Part shown: positions 3,019 to 41,876 of the stretch, in pieces | Numbering within the stretch: position 1 is the stretch's first letter | Layout: every line of letters starts with the position of its first letter | Translations under genes and position numbers: made by a program | Virus record (IMG/VR): IMGVR_UViG_2744054872_000005 | DNA: 60,920 nt | Origin: a virus | Taxonomy: Duplodnaviria > Heunggongvirae > Uroviricota > Caudoviricetes | Reading direction: 5' to 3' (one strand) | The notes under the pieces: generated by a model | What the model was told of the DNA's origin: nothing | Database searches by the model: none | Seen by the model: the letters and a program-made list of their open reading frames with translations, nothing else

Positions 3019-3600
3019 TTACCCTATAGGTGCTACTGGCCATTCAATATCCGGTGCAGTTGTTGTATTAACACGGTTCAGCAACACCCGATACTTCTTC
3101 CAGGCTTCCAGCAACGAGATTTCTTCCTCCGTTGCAATTTCCAGATCTGCAGCATCCTGAAGCGGCGCAATATGCTCACTGGCTACCTGCATCAGGTTGT
3201 TTTTTGTTTCTTCCGCCTCCCGGATCCGGAACAGTTTTTCTGCTTCCGTATCCTTCACCCAGGCTGTGCCGTTCCACTTCTGATATTCCCCTTCCGGCGA
3301 TAACCAGGTGACATTTTCCGGTAACGAGCCAAGTTCAGAAATAAATAACGCGTCGCCGGAAGCCACGTCATAGACGGTTTTTCCCCGATGATCTTCAACG
3401 AGATGCCACGATGCCTCATCACTGTTGAAAACAGCCACAAAGCCAGCCGGAATATCTGGCGGTGCAATATCGGTACTGTTTGCTGGCAGACCTGTATGAG
3501 GCGGAATATATGCGTCACCTTCACCAATAAATTCATTAGTTCCGGCCAGCAGATTATAAATTTTTATGGTCCGTGGTTGTTCACTCATTCTGAATGCCAT
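3019..3600 (-). CDS. tfa: tail fibre assembly protein Tfa
   Basis: 193 aa, near-identical by recall to lambda Tfa; start overlaps stf stop (TAATG). Confidence 0.9.
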
Positions 3601-6709: not shown

Positions 6710-6735
6710 GTCATAACACTGTGTTACCTGGCTAA

Positions 6736-7335
6736 TCAGAATTTATAGCCAACACCCACGATGAACCCGTCAGTGCGCCAGCCGCCACTGCCGGAGCCTT
6801 CATAAGCGACATCAACGGCCACGGATTCGGTCGGGTTAAACTGCACCCCAGCTCCCCACGCCAGAGAGGTGTTACTGTGGCGAGCGTCATCACTTCCGGT
6901 CAGCACGTCGTGCGTTTTCCCCTTGCTGTCAGTTACGCGGAGATAATCCCCGGAGAAGGTCGAAACACGGCTGTAAGCCACACCCGCTACCGCATAAGCA
7001 CTGAACCATTCATTCACGCGTACAGATGGCCCCGCCATCACGCTGAACCAGCGGTTACGCACTGAATCTTCATGCCAGCGGGTATCGCTGTAACGGGTAA
7101 TCTGGCGATTCTTGTCTCCTGCATAGCTGAATGACGTCACCATCCCCAGTGTGTCCGTAAACTCATAACGGTATTTCACGTTAATCCCGTTCAGATCGTC
7201 GCTGCCGGGAACGTTGGTCCGGGCATGAAGATACCCCGCGCTCAGCGTGGACTGATGTTCAGACGCCCATGCAGGCGCACCGGATACAGCCAGACAAATG
7301 GCTGCGGACAAAATGGCGGCATAAAGTTTACGCAT
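6736..7335 (-). CDS. lom: outer membrane protein Lom (Ail/Lom family)
   Basis: 199 aa with signal peptide, C-terminal GYKF, high similarity to lambda Lom by recall. Confidence 0.9.
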
Positions 7336-20583: not shown

Positions 20584-21903
20584 TTACACTGGTGTGTTCA
20601 GCAAATCGTTAACGGCATCAGATGACGGGTTACCTGCAGCCAGCGGTGCCGGTGCCCCCTGCATCAGACGATCCAGCGCAGTGTCACTGCGCGCCTGTGC
20701 ACTCTGTGGTGCAGCTGCCAGAATGCGGCGGGCCGTTTCCACGGTCATACCGGGGGGTTCGGCCAGCACGCGTGCCTGTTCTTCGCGTCCGTGAGCCTCC
20801 TCACAGTTGAGGATCCCCATAATGCGGCTGTTTTCTGCCGCAACCGCTGCGGTGATCTGCGCGTTCACATCCGGCTGCGCCGCGCTGGCGTTTTTGCCCT
20901 CCGTCGCTTGCACCACGCCAGTAACGTCAGCCTGCGAAGCAGTGGCTGAAACAGTTGTTGATTGAGTCTCTTTGGTCATTCGCCCTCCTGAGAGACGGGA
21001 TTTACGTGTATCCAGTGCATCACGCATGACGGTGATCGCATCGGTACTGTTAACAAGTTCATCAGCCAGTCCGGCATCAATGGCCTCCTGACCGCTGTAC
21101 ACTGCAGCCTCGGTATCCAGCACAGCCTGCACGGACAGGCCGGTATATGCCGATACCTTCTGTGCAAACATCCGGCGAGTTGCATCCATCCGGGACTGCA
21201 GTGTTTCCCGGACATCATCCGGTAGATGGCTGTAGGGGTTGCCATCCACCTTATGGCTGCCGCTGTAAATCAGCGTGATTTCCACGCCCTGTTTCTCCAG
21301 CGCAGCGCCGTAATTACTGTGAGCCATCATGACGCCGATGGAGCCTGTCCGGGCGGTCTGCGTGACCAGACGCCGGGAGGCGGCACTGGCAAGCAGCTGA
21401 CCTGCACTGCAGTTCATGTCGTTGGCCAGCGCCCATACCGGTTTTATGTCACGCACACGGGCGATGATGTCAGCGCAGTCAAATGCCCCCGCCACCATCC
21501 CGCCGGGCGTGTCCATATCGAGCAGAATGCCGTCCACCATCGGATCGCTGGCAGCCTGTTGCAGACGGGCGATAATGCCGTTGTAACCGGTCATCCCCGA
21601 ATGCGGCTGCAGCGCCCGCGTCCGGTTGACCAGCGTGCCGGAAACCGGCAGCACGGCGATGCCGTTCATGACCTGATAACTGCGGGCCTGTCGTGGTCCG
21701 TCATCATCACCGGATAACGCCAGCGTCGCGGGTGTCTCCGGGGCAGTCAGGCTGTCACCGGACACCGCATCTGTCAGGCGGCTGATCCCAAGCTGGCCTG
21801 CTAGCGCACAAAAGAAAACCCGCGCATAGGCGGGTTCAAGCATCAGCGGCTCATTAAAGGCCATGCTGGCAATATGCGGGAGATTACGCAGCTCTGCTGT
21901 CAC
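20584..21903 (-). CDS. C: capsid assembly protease C (with nested scaffold Nu3)
   Basis: 439 codons from a GTG start (VTAELRNLPHIASMAFNE); 20-nt overlap with the end of B as in lambda. Confidence 0.9.
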   Translation of the reverse strand: MTAELRNLPHIASMAFNEPLMLEPAYARVFFCALAGQLGISRLTDAVSGDSLTAPETPATLALSGDDDGPRQARSYQVMNGIAVLPVSGTLVNRTRALQPHSGMTGYNGIIARLQQAASDPMVDGILLDMDTPGGMVAGAFDCADIIARVRDIKPVWALANDMNCSAGQLLASAASRRLVTQTARTGSIGVMMAHSNYGAALEKQGVEITLIYSGSHKVDGNPYSHLPDDVRETLQSRMDATRRMFAQKVSAYTGLSVQAVLDTEAAVYSGQEAIDAGLADELVNSTDAITVMRDALDTRKSRLSGGRMTKETQSTTVSATASQADVTGVVQATEGKNASAAQPDVNAQITAAVAAENSRIMGILNCEEAHGREEQARVLAEPPGMTVETARRILAAAPQSAQARSDTALDRLMQGAPAPLAAGNPSSDAVNDLLNTPV

Positions 21904-22663
21904 TCTTCTCCTCCTCTGTTGATTGTCGCAGCCCGGATTCAAATGCCGCAGCCGCCCAGGCTGGCGGTTTAAGACCGGCTGCGCGGCGCTCCATCGTTTC
22001 ACGGACCTGCTGGGCAAAAATTTCCTGATAGTCGTCGCCGCGTTTTGCGCACTCTTTCTCATAGGTGCTCAGTCCGGCTTCTATCAGCATCACCGCTTCC
22101 TGTACTTCTTTCAGACCATCGATGGCCATACGACCGGAGCCTATCCAGTCACAGTTCCCCCAGGCACTGCGGGCTTCCTGAAAACTGAAGCGTGCTTTTG
22201 AAGGTAACGTCACCACGCGGCGAGCGATGGCCTCTTCCAGCCAGCACAGAAACATCTGGCTCGCCTGACGGGATGCGACGAATTTTCGCCGCCCCATAAA
22301 GTACGCCCACGACTCGTTCGCACTGGCCCGTGCCGTGGAGTAGCTCATCTGGGCGTAATTCCGGGAAAGCTGCTCATACGAGACACCCAGCCCGGCAGCG
22401 ATATACCGCAACAGTGACTGCTCAAACACGGAGTAGCCGTTATCCGTGTCCTGAGCCGTCTGCAGGTTCAGTGAGTCCCCCGGCATCAGGTGCGGCACTT
22501 TTGCGCCTCCCAGACGGACCGGTGCTGCGGCGTAATACGCGGCAATTTCACCAATCCAGCCGGTCAGCTTGTCCCGCTGCTCCTTACTGTTCGCGCCCAG
22601 AATAAAATCCATCGCTGACTGCGTATCCAGCTCACTCTCAATGGTGGCGGCATACATCGCCTT
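21884..22663 (-). pseudogene. B: portal protein B, 3' fragment (about residues 292-533), separated from its 5' part by the island
   Basis: Encodes ...KAMYAATIESELD... through the lambda gpB C-terminus; upstream of codon K the sequence is unrelated island DNA. Confidence 0.9.
22656..22663. repeat. left copy of 8-bp direct repeat ATCGCCTT (island attL core or target duplication)
   Basis: Identical octamer at 33480-33487; removing the island and one copy rebuilds an uninterrupted gpB reading frame ...SAIVKAMYAAT.... Confidence 0.85.
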
Positions 22664-22736
22664 TATGAAAAGACAGGAAAAAATAAAATTTAAAAACAGT
22701 ACATTACGAATGCTCAGACCTATCGTTTAAAGGAGT

Positions 22737-22758
22737 CGCAATACACACTGCAATACAC
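22737..22758 (+). repeat. two direct copies of GCAATACAC (candidate integrase arm-type sites, attL side)
   Basis: tcGCAATACACacTGCAATACACg; same motif three times at 33298-33350. Confidence 0.6.
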
Positions 22759-23694
22759 GATTATTTATAAGATGAGCGGCATCCGTCATAAAGCTGGTGG
22801 ATGCTTTTTCTATGCATATATGCACAGTTTTAGTGGGCGTTAATGTCGATATAGGGATCCCCATATCGAGATTGGATACCTGGCTTTTTTCCGGTTAACC
22901 TTTAATCAGGCTGGTGGGCTTTACCTGTTTTGTATGAGTGGTCATCATGACCATGTCATAACAAAAACCCCATATTCGTGGTTTTTCTGTGTCGGGGCTA
23001 TTCTGCTGTTGCCGTGCTGGTGGATATTCTCCGGTATGCGACTCCCCATATCGGCATCAGGCCCACCAGCGTGAAGCGTTTTTCATTTTTCGCGGGTATA
23101 AAAAATCGATGGGGCTGGCAGTCCGGAAGACGTCAGGTCACAGGGATTTGACCCGCCCCTCCCTGTGCATGAGCACAATAAGTAACCGAAGGCGGAATTC
23201 CGCCCTCGGTACTCACATATGAGAAACGATATTTCTTCCACAGATACCCTTTATTTGGGTATCGCGAGTAAGCCCCAAAATCTGGGTGTTACTCTTACTA
23301 CCCAAACTACGGGTAGTTTCCGTAGTTTCATGGTCGAGTTGCAGATCTGCAACTCACCCACCCGCCAACCCATTTTTGGGCCGTCGGGAATATCAACAAG
23401 TTAGCACAGAAATAACTCAGGCAGATACAAAACTCAACTTTGAGCTTTGCTTATTATTCAGTTGGTTAACATCCCTCAAAACTGAGGACTGTACCCAAAG
23501 CTATTTTTATAGCTCCGGCCTCAGCCGTTGGCTGTTCCCGAAAATATCAGTCAGTTACGTTAACCGCTAATTTCTGCCTTTGGTGTGAATACTGTCGCTT
23601 TAACCTACGGTAATTGTTCTGCCTCGGTGCGTGTCACCGCCGTAACCGCGCCAGTAAACCCCACAGATTCGTGGTTTTCCTGAATATCAGGAAT

Positions 23695-23979
23695 CTACCG
23701 CCGCAACCGTTCCGGTTTCTTCCACTGGTAAGTATTTTTCGCGCTCTCCCTCCGTTGTTGAGAACGGCGACGGTATGCCAGCAACTCAAGGACTCTGATC
23801 CGTATGTCGCGCATATCCACGCCGTTAAGCTCGATACCGTCACGGCGCATCATCTCAGCCACCACACGCGCGTAATTTTCGGCTATCACGCTGTCCGGCT
23901 GCGTGGCCTCCTGTTTGCTTGATGGTTGTTTGATTCCGGTAACGCGGCGGATTAATCCCAGCAATTCAGATTCTGTCAT
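23695..23979 (-). CDS. hypothetical protein (94 aa), last gene of island, 11 nt downstream of the TerS-like gene
   Basis: Charged, helical-looking ORF tightly coupled to the TerS-like gene; no recognisable domain. Confidence 0.45.
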   Translation of the reverse strand: MTESELLGLIRRVTGIKQPSSKQEATQPDSVIAENYARVVAEMMRRDGIELNGVDMRDIRIRVLELLAYRRRSQQRRESAKNTYQWKKPERLRR

Positions 23980-23990
23980 AGTGCGCTACG

Positions 23991-24542
23991 TTACTTGTCT
24001 TTATTCGGCTGCAACTTATCCGGCACATTTCCGGTAGTTTCCATCAGGTAATCAGCCAGTATCTGCGGGAGGTTGTCGTCAACTCCGGCACTGGCATTAC
24101 AGGCTTTAGCCACTTCCTTTTTAAGTCCATCCAGCATAGCCGGAGTCATCTGTGGGAAGCGCCTTTGCATGGTAAGCGGCAGGCTGTCCATGATAGATGA
24201 AATCTGACTCGCCAGTTTGGAAAGAACATACATACAAAACTCTGTATCAATAACGTCGCCGCGTTCGCGCTCGTTTTTAAGCTCCTGCGCTTCTGCCTGT
24301 GCTGTCAGTAATCTGATCCTGACGCGTAAAAGTTCATCGTCATCAATATCGCCCGTTTCGTTTGTAATCTGGCTAATTGCATTGTTAACCCGATTATCTA
24401 TTACACTGGCAACATCATAGAATGCCTCACGGCCCTTACGCTCGACGGGAATCACTCCCCACTTATCAAACGCAGTGGCGCTTACACGGCAACTTTTTGC
24501 CATGTTTTTTTTGTTCATCAGGTGCAATTTCATTGATACCAC
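23991..24542 (-). CDS. small terminase subunit homologue (lambda Nu1-like) encoded by the island
   Basis: 183 aa; C-terminal region aligns by eye with lambda Nu1 (e.g. LTAQAEAQELKNERERGDVIDTEFCMYVLSKLASQISSIMDSLPLTMQRRFP vs LTRAQADAQELKNARDSAEVVETAFCTFVLSRIAGEIASILDGIPLSVQRRFP); N-terminal wHTH region is divergent. Confidence 0.8.
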   Translation of the reverse strand: MVSMKLHLMNKKNMAKSCRVSATAFDKWGVIPVERKGREAFYDVASVIDNRVNNAISQITNETGDIDDDELLRVRIRLLTAQAEAQELKNERERGDVIDTEFCMYVLSKLASQISSIMDSLPLTMQRRFPQMTPAMLDGLKKEVAKACNASAGVDDNLPQILADYLMETTGNVPDKLQPNKDK

Positions 24543-24644
24543 AACTTAATTACTGTTTCAGGTTGGTGTATTGATTGTATTTTTCTCTTCTTATTCATAG
24601 AGATAGAGCGAACAACAAAACCACCACCAGCACCCGAAAAAGGC

Positions 24645-24710
24645 TCATAAATAGCGAAAACCCGCGAGGTCGCCGCCCCGTAACCTGTCGGATCGCCGGA
24701 AAGGACCCGC
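24645..24710 (-). other. island cos site: 66-bp exact copy of helper cosN and flanking sequence (cosN GGGCGGCGACCT at 24667-24678, minus strand)
   Basis: Identical to 37110-37175; sequence toward the island TerS gene (cosB side) is unrelated to the helper cosB. Confidence 0.85.
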
Positions 24711-24734
24711 CAGCCAGAACGGGCCCTAATTTCA

Positions 24735-25118
24735 TCAACCAATCAACTTATAGCGACCATCCCGTGCATTGCGACGTACACGCTCAATCTTGAGGCATAG
24801 CGCCGCACCTGGCTTTTTTGGGACAGGTACGCGGCAATATTCAGAAGCGCGAGGAATATTATTTATCCAGTCGATCACTTCACTTAAATACCAGGCCTTA
24901 CGCCCTTCCGTAACCTGCACTCGCTCCGGGAACTCTCCACTAGCCTCAAGGTTTAGCAGTGTACGCCGACTCAGGGTTGTAATTTCCATCACCTGATTCA
25001 TATCAACAAGGCGCTCGCTTAAACACATTTTGTCAGCGATAGCTTTTAATTCCTCTACAGCTGGATTCGGGTACATCATTTCGGCAATTGGCTTAAGGTC
25101 ATTGTAATCATTCTGCAT
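24735..25118 (-). CDS. AlpA-family HTH protein (second copy, 127 aa) in the island morphogenesis module
   Basis: C-terminal MEITTLSRRTLLNLEASGEFPERVQVTEGRKAWYLSEVIDWI resembles the AlpA/phage regulatory HTH. Confidence 0.55.
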   Translation of the reverse strand: MQNDYNDLKPIAEMMYPNPAVEELKAIADKMCLSERLVDMNQVMEITTLSRRTLLNLEASGEFPERVQVTEGRKAWYLSEVIDWINNIPRASEYCRVPVPKKPGAALCLKIERVRRNARDGRYKLIG

Positions 25119-25129
25119 TGTATCCCCCT

Positions 25130-25459
25130 TTACACACGAGCCAGCGGCTGAACAGAAATACCTGAGCCAACAAACGCTGCAACCTTTACTGACAGTTCTT
25201 TAACAGACTCAGGCCAGTTCAGAGCATCAACATTTAAGACACCTGTCTTATAGACCTGAGCCTGTGTTTTTTTCGCGGTGTCGATTTGTACAGCGGAAAC
25301 ATAAACCGCTTTACCTACGCTCGAACCATCCCATACCACCAGTGCACCATGCATCAGTGGCGTAAATGCAGGAATTACCCCTTTATTAGCTGAAAATATC
25401 CCCAACGTAGTAACCAGTGCTTCAGTGCCAGCCATGAGTTCAGTGTAATGAGTAGCCAT
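25130..25459 (-). CDS. head decoration protein homologue (lambda gpD-like), island-encoded
   Basis: 109 aa; shares TPLM, VWDG and C-terminal AF.G..IS motifs with gpD. Confidence 0.7.
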   Translation of the reverse strand: MATHYTELMAGTEALVTTLGIFSANKGVIPAFTPLMHGALVVWDGSSVGKAVYVSAVQIDTAKKTQAQVYKTGVLNVDALNWPESVKELSVKVAAFVGSGISVQPLARV

Positions 25460-25468
25460 TGCTCCCCC

Positions 25469-26515
25469 TTAACCAATGCGAACGGTAACAAAACGATTGA
25501 TGCGGGCCGGTATTGGCTGTGGTGCAGAGTGCGTTTGTACGTACTCAATAGCCGGATCTCCAGGCACAATGTAGTTTTTCGGTGCGAGTTCGGCTTTAGT
25601 CAGCCCCATTCGGATTAGCTCCGGATCCTGAATACCGCCATAAGCGACAATCCCCTGAAGAGCCGTATTGCCAAGCACCATCAAATCAGGATCAAGGAAA
25701 TGTTTTTCAGTTCCGTCCTCGTCGGTATAACGCCCGCTGTATACAACAATCGCAACATCGCCCATATACCCTTTAAAACTCACCGAATCACCAAGGTCTT
25801 TAAGGGCCGTTTCCAGTTCGGAATTAGAACCACGGCGGGTATCCAGAGCCTCTTTTATCGCTCTGAATGAACGGTATTTCTTCCATACATTACCGCCCAT
25901 AATGATGATATTAGTGACGCCCTCACTAAATTCTGCGTAGCTCTCAATATCATCATTTGGATCAAAAGTTTCTTTATCCTTACCTGACCACTCAGCACCG
26001 CCAGACTGAGTGATGATATTTTGTGGTTTAATATTCCAGTCCAGTTCATAACGTTCAATACCATCGCCTTCAATGATATTTTTCCCCGTTGTGATTGCCT
26101 GAACAGCAAGCCATTCAATACGTGCACGTATAGCTTTAGCCTGATTTACAATCGCCTGTTTAACTTTAATATTACGCGCCCCAAAAGCATTGTATTGTTC
26201 AGGTGATACACCAGCAGGGCGCACAGCTAACTTATTTGGATCAATGCTGCTTTTCGGTTTCATATAGCCAGGGCGAATTGTTTTTGATTCGTATCCCTCA
26301 TCTCGTGAAACTTTACTGCCCACCATAGGAGAGCAAAACGCCGCGATCGGGATATTTGGATCGTCGATCGTATCAAGAATAATGTCTCTCGATTCAAACA
26401 TTACCGAGCGAGTGAAAAACAAACTGGTAAACAACGCATTTAATTTTTTTTGCACATCTTCAGCATTAGCCACCTGCACAAGCTGTGTAGGCGAATATAA
26501 ATCAACCATACTCAT
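25469..26515 (-). CDS. major capsid protein homologue (lambda gpE-like), island-encoded
   Basis: Clear collinear similarity to gpE (TQSGGAEWSGKDKETFDPNDDIESYA, ...AIKEALDTRRGSNSELETALKDLGDSVSFKGYMGDVAIVVYSG); start chosen at MSMVDLYSPTQL with AAGAGG RBS. Confidence 0.85.
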   Translation of the reverse strand: MSMVDLYSPTQLVQVANAEDVQKKLNALFTSLFFTRSVMFESRDIILDTIDDPNIPIAAFCSPMVGSKVSRDEGYESKTIRPGYMKPKSSIDPNKLAVRPAGVSPEQYNAFGARNIKVKQAIVNQAKAIRARIEWLAVQAITTGKNIIEGDGIERYELDWNIKPQNIITQSGGAEWSGKDKETFDPNDDIESYAEFSEGVTNIIIMGGNVWKKYRSFRAIKEALDTRRGSNSELETALKDLGDSVSFKGYMGDVAIVVYSGRYTDEDGTEKHFLDPDLMVLGNTALQGIVAYGGIQDPELIRMGLTKAELAPKNYIVPGDPAIEYVQTHSAPQPIPARINRFVTVRIG

Positions 26516-26726
26516 CCTCTTTACATTCATTACAAATAATTGTGAATATATTCTATTACCGATGTCTGCTATGCGAATACATGCAACCAAGTGCAATGTT
26601 GTATAAAATCTGCCGTGACAACTTCAGTGCTGATAATTCGTGTTAATGTATTTACTTCCTTTGGTCGGGATTTATGTAGCATGCCGGAAAATCTATTTTC
26701 TTCCGGCATTTTTTTATTTGCAGAAT

Positions 26727-27149
26727 TTAAAACGGTATATTATCGCCGTACGGATCATCATTCCCCGACTGTTGTTTTGCCCTGTTCAGTGCGTCAGTAG
26801 CCTGGCCCTGTTGACCTTTTTTGCCGCCCGGTCGCGCCGTTCTGGCACTGATTACACTGTCTGCGATAACCTGCCAGCACTGCCGCGTTTCGCCGTTCTG
26901 GCCTGTCCACTGGCTTACCTGCATGTTACCCGCCACGCTCACCAGTTCGCCTTTGTGGTGTTTTGCCAGTGCGTCGGCCTGTCTGCCAAACGCCAGGACG
27001 GATAACCACATCGTCGCCGTTCCGTCATCTGCCTGGCTGCACGGAAGTGGGACCGCCATACTCGCCATCGTCATTTGTGTACCCTTGCTGGTGGTCTTTA
27101 ACTGCGGGTCAGCCACCAGCCGCCCGTAAGCCGCTATCTGTGCTGTCAT
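26727..27149 (-). CDS. ssb: single-stranded DNA-binding protein (SSB-like)
   Basis: OB-fold-like N-terminus, Gly/Gln-rich linker and acidic C-terminal tail ending DNIPF (compare SSB DDDIPF). Confidence 0.55.
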   Translation of the reverse strand: MTAQIAAYGRLVADPQLKTTSKGTQMTMASMAVPLPCSQADDGTATMWLSVLAFGRQADALAKHHKGELVSVAGNMQVSQWTGQNGETRQCWQVIADSVISARTARPGGKKGQQGQATDALNRAKQQSGNDDPYGDNIPF

Positions 27150-27391
27150 GCTGTCTGCTCTCCGGTTTTAACGTTGATGGTTGTCACCTGTTCCGCTTCG
27201 GCAATCTCCCGTTCTGTCAGCGTGGCAAAGTTTGCAGCTGCCGTTGTCATGAATGCGCTAATCAGTTCGGGATGTGCTTTCGCATATCCTTCCCCGGCGT
27301 TGCGGTCGATGATTTTTATCGACACCCTTAACCAGTGTTCCGTCAAATCAAGGGCGTGCGATTGTGATTTTTTTGTGTGCTTCGCTGTCAT
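27146..27391 (-). CDS. hypothetical protein (81 aa)
   Basis: ORF between the iteron region and ssb with overlapping stop/start. Confidence 0.4.
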   Translation of the reverse strand: MTAKHTKKSQSHALDLTEHWLRVSIKIIDRNAGEGYAKAHPELISAFMTTAAANFATLTEREIAEAEQVTTINVKTGEQTA

Positions 27392-27442
27392 AGGCTTTAT
27401 CTCACAGCAGTAAATTAAAATTTTTGCGTTTTAACCCTTCAC

Positions 27443-27664
27443 CTGTTCACCTTTTGATATTTTATCTTTTAATTCATAATGTTAAGGGGTGAACAGTTTC
27501 ACAAAAACTATTCACCAACTGTTCACCACTGTTCACCCTTGAAGCTCAATAAACAATCAAAAAGGTGAACAGTGAATAGTTTGGTGAACAGTTCATAAAT
27601 AACTGTTCACCCTATAACATACTGATACAAAAGATATTTATGACAGGGTGAACAGTGGTGAACA
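27443..27664. repeat. iteron cluster: at least 9 copies of GGTGAACAG / CTGTTCACC in both orientations (candidate island replication origin)
   Basis: Copies at about 27443, 27488, 27519, 27529, 27564, 27584, 27603, 27647 and 27656 in an AT-rich stretch just 3' of the primase gene. Confidence 0.75.
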
Positions 27665-27678
27665 GTTATTCCATAAGT

Positions 27679-29511
27679 TTAATTTTTGCTATCGTCATTA
27701 GTGACCGATACACATGATGGCATCCAGTCTTCTGATTCCTCCGTCAGTGTCACGTTTGAACGCAAACCGTGCTTCGTTTTCCGTTTCATATACTCCCTGC
27801 CATATTCCGCCATTGCCCCCGGCATATCTTTACCGAAGCGCGTCAGTGTTACAGGTTTACCAAACCCATGTGCCCTCATATAAGCCAGATAGGCATGATA
27901 GAGATACCTGCGTGGGCTGAATGGCACAATTTCAGCATTACCCACTAACAGGCCATCACACATTACCGACGCCATGAGATAGCCGCAGAAGTCCACCAGC
28001 GAATCCCCCTCTCGCTTTATCGCCAGTGCTTCTTCAGATTTCTGCTGCTCATATAACAGGCGTCTGGCTTCGTCCTGGTCAGCAAACCGTGTAAGCAGAT
28101 GGCGAATCACTACCGCCAGCTCACCTTCTATTTTTTCCGCCAGCATTGGATCGCGTTCGTTCTCCGGTACAACTTCCGAAAAATTGAATATCACCCGACG
28201 ACGTGAGATCCCCCCGCTGCGGTCACTGAATGACATGGCGTTATTGTTAACCGCCAGCACTACTGCCGGAATACGCGTTGAGTAGGGGGCTTTGTGTTTC
28301 GGGTCAATTGCCACCTTGTCACCGCCTGTAATAGCCTTAATCCCTGCCCCATCACCAGCGTAGCGGGTCATATCCGGCATGATAATCAGCGAAAAGCCAA
28401 CCACTAACGCGCGTTCCCTTGCATCTTCCAGCGCCTTCATGCTTGCCGATACTGTGTTGGCCTTACCCGCCAGCATGGTGCAAATCTCCGCCATCACGCT
28501 TTTACCACTTCCCCCTGGACCTGTTACCTCAATGAATAACTGCCAGTCGTACCGGTTCGCCAGCACCATGAATAATGCAGCCAGTACGCGATCCGCCTTG
28601 CGGTCATTCTCAGCCACCGAACGGCGTAACCACTTCCAGAAATTCGGCGCATGTGTTGCCAGCGTTTCCCCCTCTGCTGGTGGGCTGAAAGGTAATTCAC
28701 TGGCAATTAACAACCAGTCGTTTTTGTTATGCTCCCGAAAATTACCTGTTCTGGTATCAAATACCCCGTTACTGAATCCAATCAGGTTACGGGCTGTATT
28801 CCCCATAACAGGCAAACTTAACTTCATGGTATCGACCGCCGATTTAATGGCGTTCTGCGAATAGCTGATCTCCGCATCAATGAAAATCTGCGCCATAGCT
28901 CGCTGTAATTCTTTATCCTGTACTGGCTCCCATACAACGCCGTTGTAATGGTGAACAGTGTCAGAGTCAGCATGAATCGCCAGTTCACCGCCATAATGTG
29001 CCAGGAGAACTTCGCCGCGTTGACTTGCTCCCATCTGGTTAAGCGCCAGTGATGAAGCGTTATCGTCTTTTACCCGCTCTTTTTTCTTTACAGGCAGTTC
29101 AACTACCTTTTTCTTTTCCGCCTGCTCTGCCCGTTCACGTTCCAGATATTCGCGCCAGTTCTCCCGTTTCTGGCTGTGCATTCCTTCAGGATAATAATCA
29201 GCATCCCTGACACCTGCCGCTGCCAGTTTCTGCCCGATGGTATTAACAAGCCCCGGACGCAATAACCCCGCCTGATAGAGACGCACGCGATAGCGTCCGT
29301 CCGGTACGATTTGCAGGTTGTCCAGTTCGGCAAGTTGTTGCTCTCCAAGCCAGACAGGTGGCACGTTATCGCCAGCCAGTCGCCCGTCCTGTTCCTGCCA
29401 CTGATTCGCATGTGCCCACGCATCACTACCCGCAAAAATGATGACTTCCGTCATTTTGTCACGCGGCTGGTATTTTAAATTTGGCGCTTTTTTCATTTCT
29501 GCTCTCTCCAC
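27679..29511 (-). CDS. primase/replication initiation protein (P4 alpha or PICI Pri-Rep-like) with P-loop NTPase domain
   Basis: 610 aa; Walker A GPGGSGKS; placement next to int-alpA and directly upstream of the iterons. Confidence 0.75.
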   Translation of the reverse strand: MERAEMKKAPNLKYQPRDKMTEVIIFAGSDAWAHANQWQEQDGRLAGDNVPPVWLGEQQLAELDNLQIVPDGRYRVRLYQAGLLRPGLVNTIGQKLAAAGVRDADYYPEGMHSQKRENWREYLERERAEQAEKKKVVELPVKKKERVKDDNASSLALNQMGASQRGEVLLAHYGGELAIHADSDTVHHYNGVVWEPVQDKELQRAMAQIFIDAEISYSQNAIKSAVDTMKLSLPVMGNTARNLIGFSNGVFDTRTGNFREHNKNDWLLIASELPFSPPAEGETLATHAPNFWKWLRRSVAENDRKADRVLAALFMVLANRYDWQLFIEVTGPGGSGKSVMAEICTMLAGKANTVSASMKALEDARERALVVGFSLIIMPDMTRYAGDGAGIKAITGGDKVAIDPKHKAPYSTRIPAVVLAVNNNAMSFSDRSGGISRRRVIFNFSEVVPENERDPMLAEKIEGELAVVIRHLLTRFADQDEARRLLYEQQKSEEALAIKREGDSLVDFCGYLMASVMCDGLLVGNAEIVPFSPRRYLYHAYLAYMRAHGFGKPVTLTRFGKDMPGAMAEYGREYMKRKTKHGLRSNVTLTEESEDWMPSCVSVTNDDSKN

Positions 29512-29792
29512 GCGGCAATCATATTTTTCAGTTCCTGTAGTTTTTTATCCACATCCACACGTGACACATGGTTATTTCTGGAAGTCGGGATTTTCCGCCG
29601 GAATCTGCAAATAAAGATCTCCACGTTCAGCGAACTAAGAAATGAATAGCCATCACGGATAAAATACACACGGTCAAACATCAGTTCTTTTACCGTTACT
29701 CTGTTACCGTTCTTATCCAGATAAATAGCGCCGGGGATAATTTGGGGGTGTGCATAACCGCTGGCAGTCAAGCCAGATAAATACGTTCTCAT
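29493..29792 (-). CDS. hypothetical protein (99 aa)
   Basis: Overlaps primase start by 19 nt; no recognisable domain. Confidence 0.45.
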   Translation of the reverse strand: MRTYLSGLTASGYAHPQIIPGAIYLDKNGNRVTVKELMFDRVYFIRDGYSFLSSLNVEIFICRFRRKIPTSRNNHVSRVDVDKKLQELKNMIAAWREQK

Positions 29793-29798
29793 GATTAT

Positions 29799-30119
29799 TT
29801 ATCCCCGATTTGAATCAGTATTCGCTTTCTTTATAGCATTTAATGCATCTGTGGCATTTTCAATGGTGCACCGTAACGAAATATCAAAATGTCCAAGCAT
29901 TGCCAGTAACAAACCGATATTACCCATATCAATGCGCATGGCCTTTTCGTCATATTCCTCATTTTCTGACGCATGCCACATCAGGCTACCAATTGACGCA
30001 ACAGCCATTGATATATTGTCAGTAGCCCCATCCGCAGCGGAATAAACCTTTTTAGCAATATCATGCTCACAGTTAAAATGCGGATTAATCAGGTACTGGT
30101 AATTTGACATATCAGGCAT
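29799..30119 (-). CDS. hypothetical protein (about 106 aa from MPDMSNYQ)
   Basis: Internal ATG at 30119 has AGGGGG 8 nt upstream; the listed ORF extends upstream to 30236 through the operator region. Confidence 0.4.
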   Translation of the reverse strand: MPDMSNYQYLINPHFNCEHDIAKKVYSAADGATDNISMAVASIGSLMWHASENEEYDEKAMRIDMGNIGLLLAMLGHFDISLRCTIENATDALNAIKKANTDSNRG

Positions 30120-30404
30120 GGCACACCCCCTGGCGAATACGGGCGGCGAATACAGCAACACAACCGGACGGGCAGCGGTTACGCGCTTCACGTTCCGTCC
30201 AGGCGGTGACGTGGATGATTTGAGATTCTCCGGCACTCAGTGCCAGAAAACGCCACACAAAGGCCGTTTGTGTGTGTACAAGGTGTGGGGTATGCTGTCT
30301 TACAGCCATAATCGTTACTCCAGTTAACGGTTTGGTTAGAAGCCCCGTTACTGCTCCAACAGTGCGGGGCTTCGTCGTTTCAATTGCTGAATTGCATGTA
30401 TCAG

Positions 30405-30475
30405 CCCTTGTGGTATTCAGATTACATTTTGGTGAATACCATTTCAAGTCTTTTTTGGTATTCACTTTTGTATTA
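30405..30475. promoter_or_regulatory. divergent promoter/operator region with three GGTATTCA / TGAATACC repeats
   Basis: tggtattcag, tggtgaatacc and tggtattcac between the divergent replication operon and the DUF3950-like gene. Confidence 0.55.
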
Positions 30476-30508
30476 CACTGCATCCCGTTATTAATCGGAG
30501 GTGCAAAC

Positions 30509-30814
30509 ATGTCCACGAGTTCTGTTAACAATAAATCACAGCAACTGAATGCCAGATTTCCACATGAAGTAGTGAGTGGCATTGAGGCATCCCTACAGCC
30601 AGGGGAAACTAAAGCGAATTTTATAGTTACGGCTGTACGCGGTGAGATCGCCAGCCGCCAAGCAGAAGGCAGCGGAGAAAATCCCCTTGTGTCGTCACTG
30701 GATGCCCTGGCTAAGGTCGAACAAATCGGCATCAAAGCCGCCGAGGAGATCGGGCAACTCATCACCGTCGCGCGTGAAGAACTCCAGCGACGCAAGGTCA
30801 AAGAGCATGAATAG
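30509..30814 (+). CDS. DUF3950/YlcI-like putative DNA-binding protein (101 aa), candidate island regulator
   Basis: GGAGGTG RBS; N-terminus MSTSSVNNKSQQLNARFPHEVVSGIEASLQPGETKANF aligns with the helper YlcI MSTKNRTRRTTTRNIRFPNPMIEQINIALDQKGSGNF. Confidence 0.55.
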   Translation: MSTSSVNNKSQQLNARFPHEVVSGIEASLQPGETKANFIVTAVRGEIASRQAEGSGENPLVSSLDALAKVEQIGIKAAEEIGQLITVAREELQRRKVKEHE

Positions 30815-30871
30815 CCAATATCAGCGCCATAGTTTGAGGAACGCAGGCGCATTGCTTTACAGGACAGCACC

Positions 30872-31051
30872 ATGAGCGACACAGAATCAACCAAAACACC
30901 ATCACCAACTCGTAAGAGACGACGCAAAAATATAGCGCATGAACATGAATCAGAAAGATTCGCACCTTGTTCGTTTGCTCTTGAGAAATTCCTTAAAGAG
31001 CACAGGAAAAAGCTCTCGTTGCAAACCTTGGAACGAACCAAATCTGACTGA
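30872..31051 (+). CDS. hypothetical small basic protein (59 aa)
   Basis: ORF downstream of the DUF3950-like gene, followed by two terminator hairpins; below the 60-aa cut-off of the ORF track. Confidence 0.3.
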   Translation: MSDTESTKTPSPTRKRRRKNIAHEHESERFAPCSFALEKFLKEHRKKLSLQTLERTKSD

Positions 31052-31118
31052 TCACATTGCCCACCAGCCGCAAATGTGGCATTGTTGGTGATGCGTTCAA
31101 GTTTAGTGTGTATCCATT

Positions 31119-31148
31119 GGCGACCGCCCCCGGTCGCCTTTGTTTTGT
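31119..31148 (+). terminator. rho-independent terminator (first of two)
   Basis: ggcgaccg-ccccc-ggtcgcc followed by tttgttttg. Confidence 0.6.
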
Positions 31149-31724
31149 CACTGAATGCGGTTACCAAAGTAAAACTCAGGCTGATATTCACGTATCAGCC
31201 TTTTTTCTTCTTCCTCCAGCTCACGCTTTTTGCGCTTACATGCCTGTAGCTCCCTCCCCTTCTCGCTGGCACTTATTTGATATTGCTCTTTACGGCGGGA
31301 AAAATCCTGTAATGCACCCCACGGGATACCATAAGCCCCCGTTTTTCTGATACCTGGTATCACATTTCTGAATACCCAGTTACTGAAACGATGGGCGAAC
31401 GTGCCAGGAGTAACAGCTTTCCGACTTCTGGCGATTAGTTTGTAGAACCCTGACTCGCATACCGTTCGCATTGTTTGATTTCCACCTGGGGTGGGTATTA
31501 CACTCCCCCTTTTCATCATCATCGAGACGGCGTAACGCAACCTTGTGATCAACAATTTCCAGCGCAGCGCACACGTCAACGGCAACAAACCACGGATCGC
31601 CGTTCACATACACCACGCGAACGCTCACACCATCAAAGCGCAGAACGACCAGATCACGAATATCACAGAATTTTTTCACTGGACGAGCGTACCCCTTGCC
31701 CGTCACGGCAATATTTTTATTCAT
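31148..31724 (-). pseudogene. Bro-N domain (antirepressor-like) gene interrupted by a +1 frameshift in a G5/C5 run
   Basis: ORFs 31380-31724 and 31148-31588 together read ...PWFVAVDVCAALE...DDDEKG // SVIPTPGGNQTMRTVCESGFYKLI...NVIPGIRKTGAY; frame change at ccccc 31504-31508. Confidence 0.65.
31178..31207 (+). terminator. rho-independent terminator (second of two)
   Basis: aggctgata-ttcacg-tatcagcct followed by ttttttt. Confidence 0.6.
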
Positions 31725-31778
31725 CGCGTTTTACCCTATAGACAAAAACCCCTCGTGATGAGGGGCGTTATTTACTGG

Positions 31779-32036
31779 TTATTGCTGTGTTGTTTTTCCA
31801 GGTTTCCATCCAGGATGCCACTCACCACGGATCCATGCCTGAACCTCTGAAAGTCGATACCCTGCAGCACGTTCACCGATCTTGATACGTCGCGGGAATT
31901 TACCTGCCTGCTCCATTTTCCAGCGTGTTGAGTTTGCCAGCGTGGTAAGTGCTATGCACTCTTTTTCACGAATGAACCGATCAATGTCCTTCATTGTGCG
32001 CAAATCGTTTTCATCAACAAGAGAATAAATTGCCAT
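31779..32036 (-). CDS. alpA: AlpA-family transcriptional regulator/excisionase
   Basis: 85 aa HTH ...GKFPRRIKIGERAAGYRLSEVQAWI; immediately downstream of int. Confidence 0.8.
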   Translation of the reverse strand: MAIYSLVDENDLRTMKDIDRFIREKECIALTTLANSTRWKMEQAGKFPRRIKIGERAAGYRLSEVQAWIRGEWHPGWKPGKTTQQ

Positions 32037-32037
32037 A

Positions 32038-33279
32038 TCACACCACCTCTTTATTAAGCTCGATAACGTTGTTGTTAAATCCTGCTATCGTATTAAGGTA
32101 ATTAACCCACATATTAAGCACCTCAAGTTTTTTCTTTATATGCCTGCTTTTATTGTAAACACCAGCAACCCCTTTCACTTTATGACCTAAAAGAAGTTCG
32201 ACAATATAAGGATCCGCCCCCATATCATTAAGCGTAGTGGAAAATGTGCGCCTGAAATCATGTATGCACCACAAGCCATTAGTATCATGACCAAGACGCC
32301 TGCATATTCTGTTTGCAGCCCCTGTTATTGTCGCCCTTTGCAAAGCACAACCGACAACATAACCGCGATTTTTTGTTTCTGCGTAAAGATTAACGATCCA
32401 TTGTTTTATTCCGTCAGGAACAGGCCTTACTATAGCCTCCTTGTTTTTGCTGTGCTCTTTTGGGACTGTCCATACCCAGTTTTTTAAATCCCATTCGTCC
32501 CAGGTGGATAGCCTCGCCTCCTGCTGTCGGCAACCAAACACCAGGCAGATAACCATTATTCTTCGGTTATATATTGATGACAGAGTTAGCAAATTATTAC
32601 CGTAAGCATAAGACCATACATCAGCGGTTTCATTGATATTAAGAACGCGATCCCTTATACCGGATGAGCGCCCGACATAACTTACGTTAATATCTCCAAA
32701 GGGATCGCACGCGATGTATTGCCTGACGCGACAAAAACGCAACGCCTGTTTGATATCAAGAAAAATTGCACCAGACATAACAGGCGCATTTTTTTTGATC
32801 CTGTCAAAGACGGTAAGCCATGTGTGTAATTTGCACTGTTCTATAGCCATATCACCGATATAGGGGAAGATATGCTTTTCAAATCGTTTTATTAAATATT
32901 CATGCTCTTTTCTGGCTGTTGTGGCGTGATTATCGTACCAGTAAAACAGCGCATCCCTTACGGTCACTGGTTGCATGGTTTTTTCGGCAGCAAGTTTTAT
33001 TTGCCTGCGTGGGTCCAGATTTTCAGCCAGCCATTCACGGCACTGATCACGCATGCGCCTGGCTGTTGCAAGAGACATATCAGGATAGCGCCCAAGTGTA
33101 AGCCATACCGGAGGGGATTCCCTGCCACCAAGACGATAGTAAAAAACAAAGCTGATCCCCCCAACCATGCTTACACGCACAGACAACCCGCGCCCATCCG
33201 CTATTGTTTTTTGTTTGTCCTGCCGTTTTCCGACAAGACTCTTTAACAGTTTGTCACTGAGTTTGTTTTCAATAGCCAT
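32038..33279 (-). CDS. int: tyrosine integrase (P4-type)
   Basis: 413 aa; N-terminal arm-binding-type domain and C-terminal catalytic region (HDFRRTF...LLGHK...Y); adjacent to the island right junction. Confidence 0.9.
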   Translation of the reverse strand: MAIENKLSDKLLKSLVGKRQDKQKTIADGRGLSVRVSMVGGISFVFYYRLGGRESPPVWLTLGRYPDMSLATARRMRDQCREWLAENLDPRRQIKLAAEKTMQPVTVRDALFYWYDNHATTARKEHEYLIKRFEKHIFPYIGDMAIEQCKLHTWLTVFDRIKKNAPVMSGAIFLDIKQALRFCRVRQYIACDPFGDINVSYVGRSSGIRDRVLNINETADVWSYAYGNNLLTLSSIYNRRIMVICLVFGCRQQEARLSTWDEWDLKNWVWTVPKEHSKNKEAIVRPVPDGIKQWIVNLYAETKNRGYVVGCALQRATITGAANRICRRLGHDTNGLWCIHDFRRTFSTTLNDMGADPYIVELLLGHKVKGVAGVYNKSRHIKKKLEVLNMWVNYLNTIAGFNNNVIELNKEVV

Positions 33280-33297
33280 TAAAAGCCCTCAAGAGAT

Positions 33298-33350
33298 TTG
33301 CAATACACACCCATCCCGATCGCCAATTTGCAATACACATTGCAATACAC
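33298..33350 (+). repeat. three direct copies of TGCAATACAC (candidate arm-type sites, int side)
   Basis: tTGCAATACACac ... tTGCAATACACat-TGCAATACACaa, between int and the junction. Confidence 0.6.
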
Positions 33351-33479
33351 AAAACCGCGAAAAACTGGAAGAGTGATGAACGGTCATCAAAAGTATGGAA
33401 AACGACATTCCAGACGCAGCAAGGGTTTCAGTGGAGTTGGCGAACGATGCGGGCAACTACGGTGAGATGATAGACATAA

Positions 33480-36408
<2,929 letters not shown>

Positions 36409-36434
<26 letters not shown>

Positions 36435-36954
36435 TCAGCAACCCCGGTATCAGTTCATCCAGCGCGGCTGCTTTGTTCATGGCTTTGATGATATCCCGTT
36501 TCAGGAAATCAACATGTCGGTTTTCCAGTTCCGGAAAACGCCGCTGCACCGACAGGGGGATCCCGTCGAGAATACTGGCAATTTCACCTGCGATCCGCGA
36601 CAGCACGAAAGTACAGAATGCGGTTTCCACCACTTCAGCGGAGTCTCTGGCATTTTTTAGCTCCTGTGCGTCGGCCTGCGCACGCGTAAGTCGATGGCGT
36701 TCGTACTCAATAGTCCCTGGCTGGAGATCTGTCTCGCTGGCCTGCAGCAGTTCTTCAACTTCCCGGCGCAGCTTTTCGTTCTCAATTTCAGCATCCCTTT
36801 CGGCATACCATTTTATGACGGCGGCAGAATCATAAAGCACCTCATTACCCTTGCCACCGCCTCGCAGAACGGGCATTCCCTGCTCCTGCCAGTTCTGAAT
36901 GGTACGGATGCTCGCGCCGAAAATGTCAGCCAGCTGCTTTTTGTTGACTTCCAT
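36409..36954 (-). CDS. Nu1: terminase small subunit Nu1
   Basis: 181 aa, MEVNKKQLADIFGASIRTIQNWQEQGMPV... as lambda Nu1. Confidence 0.97.
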
Positions 36955-37109: not shown

Positions 37110-37175
37110 TCATAAATAGCGAAAACCCGCGAGGTCGCCGCCCCGTAACCTGTCGGATCGCCGGAAAGGACCCGC
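37110..37175 (-). other. helper prophage cos region (cosN GGGCGGCGACCT at 37132-37143, minus strand), cosB toward Nu1
   Basis: Matches the lambda cohesive-end sequence and flanks by recall; 178 nt upstream of Nu1. Confidence 0.9.
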
Positions 37176-40621: not shown

Positions 40622-41154
40622 TTTTCCTCACATATGTCATATAGTAAAGGATTATATATACCGTTGTTTTGGACGCTCAAACAGCGAATCAGATCAAATA
40701 AAACGCACATTTGTTAACATTTACACAAAGTCTGCGTGGGATATTCTGAAAGAATATCCATAATGTGGAGAGAATCTATTGAAGTGCATGGTGCCGGGTG
40801 CCTCCCGGTGAATTCAGTACCAGCACCTGAATCCGCGATTATCCCATATACCTACTCGCTGATTGCCCCTCCGCACAGGGGGATTCACCATGCCAGTTTC
40901 TTTTAACAAACTCCCCGCAAACCAGAGAACAGTCAACCGCCTGAATTGTGAAGTATTTAAAAATTTCTCCCGCTAACTGATACCCGGCTAACAGTCTGGC
41001 GTTTTCTTTTTCAGCAACGGGAAAGCAACAACCACCACACCCGCCACCAGCACACCGTCAGCCAGCACTGACATTATCCGGCTGCTGCAATGCCATTCAC
41101 AAAAACAGTAAGCAATCACTTTTTACCGTAACAGGTGATAATCCAGATATGTAT

Positions 41155-41618: not shown

Positions 41619-41695
41619 TGGCGCGCTGTACTGGATTCGAACCAGTAACCGATTGCTTAGAAGGCAATTGCTCTGTCCGGCTGAGCTAACAACGC
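41619..41695 (-). tRNA. tRNA-Arg (anticodon UCU)
   Basis: 77 nt; clover-leaf drawn by hand: acceptor GCGTTGT/ACAGCGC, anticodon loop CTTCTAA, T-loop GGTTCGAATCC, 3' GCCA. Confidence 0.8.
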
Positions 41696-41800
41696 TGAAT
41701 ACCGATAATGGACCGCTATCGGGGACCCGCCCCCCCCCCGCACCAACAACCCTGTTATCGTGTCGTCTGCTCTTCCTGATAAGCTCATGGCGGTTTGTGA

Positions 41801-41876
41801 TGGTGGCCCTTGCTGGATTTGAACCAGCGACCTGGCGATTATGAGTCGCTCGCTCTCACCACTGAGCTAAAGGGCC
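41801..41876 (-). tRNA. tRNA-Ile2 (anticodon CAU, ileX/ileZ-like)
   Basis: 76 nt GGCCCTTTAGCTCAGTGGTGAGAGCGAGCGACTCATAATCGCCAGGTCGCTGGTTCAAATCCAGCAAGGGCCACCA; close to recalled E. coli ileX. Confidence 0.8.

Follow-up and report, generated by a model that had tools for sequence, protein, structure and literature searches.

Positions 22664–23694 of the 60,920-nucleotide viral DNA analysed here (IMG/VR record IMGVR_UViG_2744054872_000005; hereafter the window) lie at one end of an island that interrupts the portal gene of a lambda-like Escherichia coli prophage. The head and tail genes of this prophage are on the minus strand, with Nu1 at 36409–36954, gpA at 34509–36434 and the helper lambda cohesive-end site (cos) at 37132–37143. 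A 10.7-kb insert separates the N-terminal part of the portal gene (33428–34309) from its C-terminal part (21884–22657), and both halves are flagged as partial in RefSeq. The insert encodes a tyrosine integrase (int, 32038–33279), HTH/BRO/Icd-like proteins, a primase, SSB, a major capsid protein, a decoration protein, an AlpA-family protein, a Nu1-family small terminase (TerS; terS, 23991–24542) and a 94-amino-acid protein, orf94 (23695–23979). Every island gene is on the minus strand, co-oriented with the portal gene and the other helper late genes. On the evidence of its genes and their layout the insert is a helper-embedded phage-inducible chromosomal island (HE-PICI; PICI without the embedding), a class of satellite defined by Tommasini, Mageeney & Williams in 2023 (PMC10111431): the portal gene is split, the island genes run with the helper late genes, and a doubled tgTGTATTGCantgTGTATTGCa motif stands on both sides of the crossover. 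The stretch discussed below is the gene-free distal end of this island, between orf94 and the left junction, and RefSeq holds no annotation over it in three identical genomes.

Two observations concern the island as a whole. Its BRO-N domain gene is annotated as frameshifted in an identical RefSeq genome (L001 21503–22079, corresponding to window ~31150–31730). A relative of the island is deposited in PLSDB as a 10,790-bp circular 'plasmid' (L147; NZ_CP148328.1, 1–10790); it is an excised PICI with int, AlpA, primase, a fusion of ClpP and major capsid protein, and orf94, and is probably the episomal form caught by assembly. In this circle the order is orf94, core region, phage attachment site (attP) and int.

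The original prediction, made from the letters alone, held that the stretch lacks a convincing open reading frame (ORF), is dense in palindromes and stem-loops, and could encode structured RNAs or protein-binding sites. We agree on the first point: no ORF in the stretch has a third-codon-position bias across homologues, where the control gene orf94 gives 496, 734 and 1240 substitutions at codon positions 1, 2 and 3, and several of the ORFs are broken in 4 of 7 to 10 of 18 homologous variants. A hidden coding sequence was rejected on these two grounds. The only 'hypothetical protein' annotated in a relative, of 62 amino acids in E47, overlaps the Chi region and is not conserved, and the stretch yielded neither pseudogene-like ORF remnants nor matches to annotated genes. 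The density of structure is equally real. Counting perfect inverted repeats with a stem of 7 and a loop of at most 20, we found 17, compared with 1.4 ± 1.5 in 500 dinucleotide shuffles, none of which reached this number; the excess is about 12-fold, and the stretch is the top-scoring 1-kb tile of a window whose median is 2. RNA-fold z-scores descend to −7.6 per 120-nt window; over 23130–23420 the minus strand scores −8.6 and the plus strand −7.1. Structure is concentrated in 23120–23440, moderate in 22760–23080, and absent from 22600–22760 and 23000–23120. All five features that had been named exist in the sequence, at positions that were off by up to ~20 bp. Of the two proposed interpretations, protein-binding sites are supported (an attP arm motif, a terminase cos, four Chi sites, an integration host factor (IHF) consensus and recurrent palindromes), and structured RNAs are not. 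We think it probable that the stretch works as a patchwork of cis-acting DNA signals, with no RNA gene that can be demonstrated in it.

Attachment arm, Chi sites and a second cos

The sites that define this end of the island, together with the island's own lambda-type cos outside the stretch, are as follows.

22664–22675, no strand: island/portal junction and attachment (att) crossover region; TATGAAAAGACA pairs with TATGGAAAACGACA at 33394–33407, the other island end
22738–22757, minus: attP arm with the doubled motif TGTATTGCagtgTGTATTGC; partner copy at 33330–33349, also minus
22793–22800, plus: exact Chi octamer GCTGGTGG, inside the stem and loop of the 22778–22805 hairpin
22910–22917, plus: exact Chi octamer, oriented as the 22793 site
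23016–23023, plus: exact Chi octamer, ~90 bp inside the 'left end' that would result from cutting at cos2; Citrobacter and Salmonella keep ATCCACCAGC
23063–23070, minus: exact Chi octamer in the opposed orientation, 42 bp from the cos2 cohesive end
23081–23163, minus: cos2, a complete SfV/SfI/SfII/ST64B/phiP27-type cohesive-end site, by homology to phage cos
23358–23365, minus: near-Chi GCGGGTGG, one mismatch; from a cut at cos2 it would be ~250 bp away and oriented for recognition
24600–24710, minus: cos1, the island lambda-type cos, outside the stretch; cosQ at 24696–24708 and cosN GGGCGGCGACCT at 24667–24678

cos2 was first detected as an 83-bp match of 97.6% identity in hundreds of E. coli genomes. 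In ordinary E. coli prophages its homologue occupies the space that separates an HNH endonuclease gene from a P27-family terS, and cos2 is 97.6% identical over 84 bp to this intergenic region of one such prophage. Over ~84 bp it is 95–97% identical to SfV, SfII, ST64B and a prophage and 82% identical to the annotated phiP27 cos-site, a range of 82–97% that holds over the whole intergenic cos region for the group of SfV, SfI, SfII, ST64B and phiP27. The homologue runs across the terminus of the SfV genome, from its end into its start, and aligns with the 'cos-site' annotated in phiP27; its matches in phage records fall at genome termini, and the homology ends exactly where the phage coding sequences start. 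Shared with this group are the cohesive 10-mer, a cosQ-like GGGAGGGGCGGGTCAAATC and a TATACCCGCGAAAAATGAAA block. The 10-mer, TGCCAGCCCC at 23111–23120, has one mismatch (9/10) to 5'-TGCCCGCCCC, the 10-nt cohesive end of SfI that was determined by sequencing virion DNA ends (PMC3636060). A tRNA-like att remnant that we had considered at 23140–23165 proved to be the cosQ-like part of cos2.

Unlike the phage sites, the island copy has no HNH or terS gene on either side, carries one substitution in its 10-mer, and continues into Chi sites and palindromes that are specific to the island; it sits by itself between a terminator hairpin and Chi/palindrome DNA. Such isolation is to be expected of a captured cos and indicates that cos2 is a copy of a phage cos and not a phage packaging module. 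Its orientation agrees with that of terS in every case, it is on the same strand as the island lambda-type cosN (24667–24678), and it occurs in an island context in 293 of the 5426 complete E. coli genomes.

Our search for the island's own lambda-type cos within the stretch ended outside it, at the cosN of 24667–24678 upstream of the Nu1-like terS. In this cos1 (window 24530–24760), cosQ, cosN and the first ~25 bp are identical to the helper cos, and cosB, which differs from lambda's, is unrelated. The cosB of cos1 contains a Chi site at 24624–24631, 37 bp from cosN, and a small ORF (MNKKRKIQSIHQPETVIKLWYQ) in the same region overlaps the terS start. With cos1 and its own Nu1-like TerS on one side and cos2 on the other, the island carries signals for two unrelated terminase families, and two kinds of helper could therefore mobilise it. 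Seven sufficiently long relatives without cos2 carry a second, inverted lambda cosN between terS and orf94. In many relatives this inverted cosN is present as an exact copy ~180 bp after terS (L036, at 6729–6740 on the minus strand; L040, L044, L045, L048 and others), and in the seven loci long enough to judge, it and the SfV-type cos2 are mutually exclusive. One Citrobacter island (L148, 2598–3008) has an HNH gene followed by a partial SfV-type cos-like sequence, 78% identical to window 23113–23163, in addition to a complete cos2 downstream; it also has a GmrSD-type gene.

The sequence around cos2 is dominated by Chi. The perfect 10-bp inverted repeats GCTGGTGGGC/GCCCACCAGC, which the original prediction had seen as possible ends of a long stem (about 140 bp apart, at 22928 and 23074), are present at 22910–22919 and 23061–23070 and are in fact two opposed Chi octamers. 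A retron msr/msd-like element, which the flanking inverted repeats had also brought to mind, was rejected, there being no reverse transcriptase nearby and the repeats being Chi. Four exact Chi sites fall within 280 bp, where 0.02 would be expected from base composition and 0.23 from the density in E. coli (P ~9e-5 at the E. coli Chi density and 4e-8 for a random octamer), and Chi is the most frequent octamer of the stretch. Five islands of the family have one Chi per 0.8–1.2 kb, 4–6 times the chromosomal density, and the RefSeq annotation of the island includes no Gam, Exo or Bet (Red) gene. For the helper, we count zero Chi in the 22.6-kb head and tail late region (1–22657), ten in the embedded island (22658–33420), and pairs in the early/right region at 43584/43636 (plus) and 44042/44100 (minus). 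A hairpin just 5' of Chi is not a general feature, occurring in 6.8% of 400 Chi contexts and at 8.3% of random positions.

With one conserved exception, these sites are oriented towards a cut at cos2. For RecBCD to recognise Chi, it must reach 5'-GCTGGTGG-3' from its 3' side (PMC12315714; established knowledge). Heading from a cos2 cut towards lower coordinates, it would meet plus-strand Chi at ~90, 195 and 312 bp; in the opposite direction it would meet the minus-strand site at ~250 bp, a degenerate copy in the window whose counterpart is an exact GCTGGTGG in about half of the relatives. The 22793 site is oriented for RecBCD travelling to lower coordinates from a cut at either cos. Across 23 distinct cos2 contexts, which are related sequences and whose counts are thus not independent events, 19 Chi upstream of cos2 are correctly oriented and 1 is not, and 31 downstream are correctly oriented, the exceptions being the conserved +42/+35 position and two sites at +390.

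At the island boundary, the start of the stretch at 22664, as originally drawn, coincides with the island/portal junction. The doubled motif tgTGTATTGCantgTGTATTGCa is given in PMC10111431 as specific to the attP arms of one integrase clade of HE-PICIs, and by motif identity the last ~100 bp of the stretch are the attP arm of that clade. The distance from motif to junction is ~75–80 bp for the 22738 copy and ~55–60 bp for the int-side copy, a spacing with no obvious match to the 81 or 132 bp published there for HE-PICIs.

Parts of the stretch occur in 1513 of the 5426 complete E. coli genomes and the whole of it in only three. From 80 TerS-anchored IMG/VR loci we recovered 74 distinct downstream regions, in which blocks are shuffled, duplicated or missing. 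Islands in Citrobacter and Salmonella, all reached through contigs encoding orf94 homologues, lack the palindromic core described below and keep a P27-like cos2, followed by CACGCTGGTGGG, the palindrome P2 and ATCCACCAGC. This cos2–Chi–P2–Chi block, at 77–83% identity, is all that the islands of these genera have in common downstream of orf94 besides short matches to the variable insert, and CACGCTGGTGGG around the 23063–23070 Chi does not vary among islands of E. coli, Citrobacter and Salmonella. Scans of GTDB species-representative genomes with a TerS peptide pattern and a palindrome pattern found nothing. Just upstream of cos2, Citrobacter, Salmonella and some E. coli islands have an iteron array that is absent from the window, consisting of three copies of TTGCGGGTTA, an AT-rich spacer and three inverted copies of TAACCCGC (L148 5280–5480, L150 4590–4760, and also L092, L099, L113 and L128); it looks like an origin or a TerS-binding array.

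Palindromes, hairpins and the conserved core

The remaining features of the stretch are palindromes and hairpins, listed here in coordinate order.

22778–22805, plus: terminator-like hairpin with a T-run, from a consensus scan
22847–22868, no strand: palindrome P1, CGATATAGGGATCCCCATATCG; its half-site CGATATGGGG is common to P2 and 22968–22977
22940–22952, no strand: palindrome GGTCATCATGACC, of the TGGTCAT-N-ATGACCA type, which recurs in related islands
23032–23053, no strand: palindrome P2, 22 bp, related to P1, between opposed Chi sites; in Salmonella both half-sites are altered symmetrically
23185–23210, minus: strong terminator-like hairpin of 11 bp with 8 G-C pairs and a U-rich tail, co-oriented with the island genes
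23236–23362, minus: conserved palindromic core of ~127 bp, with a perfect palindrome at 23336–23355 (central GATC), an ACTAC/GTAGT array, an inverted repeat and a hairpin
23361–23388, minus: hairpin H1, whose stem is kept with differing sequences among relatives
23391–23403, plus: exact match to the IHF consensus, WATCAANNNNTTR (TATCAACAAGTTA), part of a conserved TAACTTGTTGATATT box
23404–23694, minus: variable insert with small hairpins, including a terminator-like GCTCAAAGTTGAG plus TTTTGT at 23427–23445

Most of the originally named features are among these. The near-palindrome around GGGATCCCC, which had been put at about 22860–22885, has arms at 22842–22857 and 22858–22873 and P1 as its core; the hairpin with a T-run, GGTCATCATGACC and the perfect 20-bp palindrome GAGTTGCAGATCTGCAACTC were all recovered, at 22778–22805, 22940–22952 and 23336–23355. 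P1 lies in a block (22835–22954) common to islands with different integration sites. The IHF consensus itself is established. A literature search with the palindrome sequence returned no paper.

The hairpins at 23185–23210 (minus) and 22778–22805 (plus) pass a terminator consensus scan, and they would presumably terminate transcription. L089-type relatives have a non-homologous hairpin with a T-run in place of the former. The variable insert is absent from L097-, LH85-a- and O157-type relatives, and in relatives without it H1 follows the orf94 stop by ~20 nt. Among 34 distinct orf94 3' flanks the H1 stems differ and the loops, of 3–6 nt, are A-rich or T-rich and patternless. H1 is the only element that behaves like a selected stem, which fits a generic terminator or stabiliser stem-loop.

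The core comprises a symmetric ACTAC/GTAGT array (23297–23326), an imperfect 33-nt inverted repeat (23245–23315) and a GATACCC/GGGTATC hairpin (23243–23263), besides the 20-bp palindrome. It is present in 664 of the 5426 E. coli genomes (~12% of complete genomes), for example in an O157:H7 HE-PICI inside a terminase gene, is annotated in none of them, and always lies just downstream of an orf94 homologue. Some islands have two copies ~435 bp apart (L092 4535–4997, L099, L128). In Citrobacter L148 (4281–4450) three tandem units of ~55 bp each combine a TAAC..GTTGAT box with a hairpin and a Chi or near-Chi; one such unit is present in the window, at 23358–23405.

The constant neighbour of the core, orf94, belongs to a small family (37 clusters at 50% identity) that carries no annotation anywhere. 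Its C-terminal tail YRRRSQQRRESAKNTYQWKKPERLRR is almost invariant in 26 homologues while the N-terminus varies, and AlphaFold, with a mean pLDDT of 69, predicts three helices with the invariant Arg-rich tail in a long one. It has no Pfam or PDB sequence match, nothing with E<2 in a Foldseek search of the PDB, and falls in PHROG 1561, of unknown function. An identity as Rpp or a TerS-like DNA-binding protein was rejected, no sequence or fold match pointing to either. The tail sequence RRRSQQRRESAKNTYQWK bears a resemblance to the lambda N motif, to which neither the PDB sequence search nor Foldseek against the PDB lent support. Antitermination of the boxB/nut kind was likewise rejected: the hairpins after orf94 have variable loops, not a conserved GNRA-like purine pentaloop, and no boxA-like sequence was seen.

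Proposed packaging by two helper types and competing explanations

Altogether we favor a reading in which the tail of this satellite is probably a mosaic of cis-acting DNA, made up of an att arm, a second cos, Chi sites and terminator-like hairpins. In the direction of transcription (minus strand) the order is orf94, variable insert, a small stem-loop, core, 23185–23210 hairpin, cos2, Chi and attP arm. We envision that the hairpin ends or insulates the late operon, which would keep late transcription from passing through attP into int in the excised circle. cos2 would then let helpers of the SfV/ST64B/P27 type, with their HNH protein, P27-family TerS and HK97-like large terminase, cut and package the island, a function that we infer from homology to the phage sites, and lambda-type helpers would act in parallel through cos1 and the island's own TerS. 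RecBCD entering at the cos2 cut would meet correctly oriented Chi within ~90–320 bp on one side and at ~250 bp on the other. Acting on RecBCD as they do elsewhere, these sites could protect cut, injected linear or concatemeric DNA and channel it into RecA-dependent recombination, favoring multimers, without which a genome of 10.7 kb would not fill a phage head. The lack of Gam and Red in the island, combined with about one Chi per kilobase, leads us to suggest this role of Chi in protecting satellite DNA and promoting multimers.

Several observations weigh against this model. The cohesive 10-mer carries a C-to-A change, a variant found in 13 of 23 contexts (the canonical form is in 8 of 23), and cos2 could be a decaying relic. 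Many relatives have no cos2, and SCEC020022, which is 100% identical to the window over the stretch, has no second copy of a cos2-type cos, so that no SfV-type helper cos was detected in that host. Diversity within E. coli is uniformly low (~3–4%) from the core through cos2; a test for purifying selection on cos2 there has no power and cannot show it. One conserved Chi (+42) is in the non-protective orientation, and across the island Chi orientations are balanced at 5 to 5, unlike the one-sided arrangement in phages of the type called LLS. Terminator-like sites are not above the shuffles (5 versus 2.5 ± 1.8). Finally, the core, the most strongly structured part of the stretch, is given no function.

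One rival explanation concerns the core. The segment ~23215–23405 on the minus strand, ending at the 23185–23210 terminator, could be a structured non-coding RNA as the original prediction proposed, derived from a 3' untranslated region (UTR) or independent, a satellite small RNA acting on helper or host. The minus strand folds better than the plus (z −8.6; −128.7 versus −106.8 kcal/mol for 291 nt), has 5 G-U pairs to the plus strand's 1 in the 191-nt core, and ends in a terminator-like hairpin whose place is taken by a different hairpin with a T-run in L089-type relatives; the H1 stem persists through different sequences, with three pairs changed on both sides; and the core's presence in 664 genomes has gone unannotated. 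However, a covariance-model scan (Rfam 15, 22400–24100) gave no match at the gathering score and, at E<=10, three chance-level matches and nothing else. Nor does covariation support a large RNA, in a sample of only two core sequence types (at least 88% and ~75% identity): double changes occur in 6 of 59 pairs of the minimum-free-energy structure, and 268 of 500 shuffles do as well. In the long hairpin, L096-type relatives of 75% identity mostly break pairs, with 33 pair-breaking and 11 G-U-preserving cells, a ratio that by rough reckoning is near that expected without selection for pairing. Across the same two sequence types 87% of cells are paired, and helices 5–8 depart mostly via unpaired cells. 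The core elements are palindromic as DNA and fold on either strand, the ACTAC/GTAGT array has conserved cores and non-complementary spacers as is typical of protein sites, the H1 loops flip between A-rich and T-rich, and upstream of the core we found no sigma-70-like promoter. We regard an RNA gene as unlikely. A narrower version, in which the hyper-structured core of ~127–190 nt and orf94 form a PICI-specific RNA or RNA–protein device, either a 3'UTR-derived RNA or an N/nut-like readthrough or processing module, strikes us as quite unlikely; in its readthrough form it could control late transcription across the terminators, cos2 and attP into int or the downstream late genes of the helper.

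Alternatively, the palindromes and repeats of 23236–23405 might be an array for replication or regulatory proteins, such as a second origin, a crr-like region, or operators for the AlpA-like protein, orf94 or IHF. Four symmetric ACTAC cores, the 20-bp palindrome with its central GATC, the exact IHF consensus and the TGCA-N-TGCA palindromes that recur in relatives would suit such an array, as would its constant linkage to orf94 with the invariant Arg-rich tail in a predicted long helix. Yet the core is common to islands with different replicases (primase or DUF927) and so is not replicase-specific, no further copies of its ACTAC and palindrome motifs are present near the primase gene, and on these two grounds an origin or crr was rejected; in addition, the core is missing from the Citrobacter and Salmonella relatives, whose iteron array is a different one, and orf94 has no detectable DNA-binding fold by Pfam, PDB or Foldseek. 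We consider the array very unlikely. A more general objection is that the whole stretch is evolutionary debris, left by recombination with helpers ('late gene capture') and turnover of cargo, with cos2, Chi and palindromes as passengers. HE-PICIs are reported to capture helper late DNA (PMC10111431), and the extreme mosaicism, with 74 distinct downstream regions among 80 loci, the substituted 10-mer and the lack of differential conservation within E. coli are all what debris would look like. Debris would not readily account for a cos2 taken with exact intergenic boundaries and without fragments of the flanking genes, for the absence of pseudogene-like remnants and annotated-gene matches, for a cos2–Chi–P2–Chi block retained across three genera with invariant octamers while nearly all its surroundings were replaced, or for Chi sites that are non-randomly oriented around cos2 and in excess throughout the island. 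This explanation, too, we hold to be improbable.

The components of the mosaic we favor have precedents. HE-PICIs, dual lambda-type cos sites, dual packaging signals in one satellite and Chi-rich phages without Rec genes are all known already. SaPIbov5 of Gram-positive hosts is packaged through both cos and pac, combining a pac-type TerS with a phi12/phiSLT cos. Like SaPIbov5, the island described here would use two helper packaging systems and holds a copied HNH-type phage cos without the accompanying genes; it differs in being an enterobacterial PICI with two cos systems, in place of cos and pac, and with flanking Chi. The Gram-negative PICI EcCICFT073 also has two sites, cos1 and cos2 (Fillol-Salom et al. 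2018, 2019; PMC6092414, PMC6739421), and the same division into cosQ and cosN as in the helper and a cosB that is different. However, both of its sites are lambda-type and need Rpp with the helper TerS, whereas our island has its own Nu1-like TerS, a second cos from the unrelated, HNH-dependent and HK97-like SfV/P27 family, and in orf94 no Rpp homologue by sequence. Zheng et al. 2025 (PMC12315714) showed that lambdoid phages without a Rec module (LLS) are rich in Chi and have clusters of it near their ends, and the island resembles these phages in lacking Gam and Red, in a Chi density several-fold above that of the host, and in Chi that face RecBCD near a cos end. Those phages are autonomous and one-sided (20 to 3 near the right end), whereas here a satellite has Chi on two sides of cos2 and a balanced count island-wide; satellites are not mentioned in that paper. 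With the HE-PICIs of PMC10111431 the island shares the tyrosine integrase, AlpA, the order Integration-Bro-Replication-Late and the doubled TGTATTGC motif on both sides of the crossover, and the available text of that report describes no non-coding tail, second heterologous cos or Chi sites. The papers that we consulted contain no description of a PICI with both a lambda-type and an HNH/HK97-type cos, or of Chi arranged around a satellite cos.

Virulence and defence genes travel between enterobacteria on PICI satellites, whose host range is determined by which helpers can package them. If our reading is correct, a second group of temperate phages, common in E. coli, Shigella and Salmonella and unrelated to the first, could transfer a lambda-embedded satellite. 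It would also extend the strategy of 'no Rec module, many Chi' from phages to satellites and offer a simple explanation of how an element of 10 kb without Gam withstands RecBCD and gives rise to multimers. Most of what had appeared mysterious in this recurring, unannotated ~1 kb resolves into recognisable elements, and an att arm, a cos and Chi sites can now be annotated in up to ~300 E. coli genomes and the core in 664; what stands out is the implication of two helpers, the layout of Chi and the widespread core. Elsewhere in the helper prophage, Rfam and ARAGORN matches to IS009, STnc100, sok antitoxin RNA, DicF, tRNA-Arg(tct) and tRNA-Met fall at 3059–3257, 40732–40922, 44872–45046, 56114–56165 and 41619–41876.

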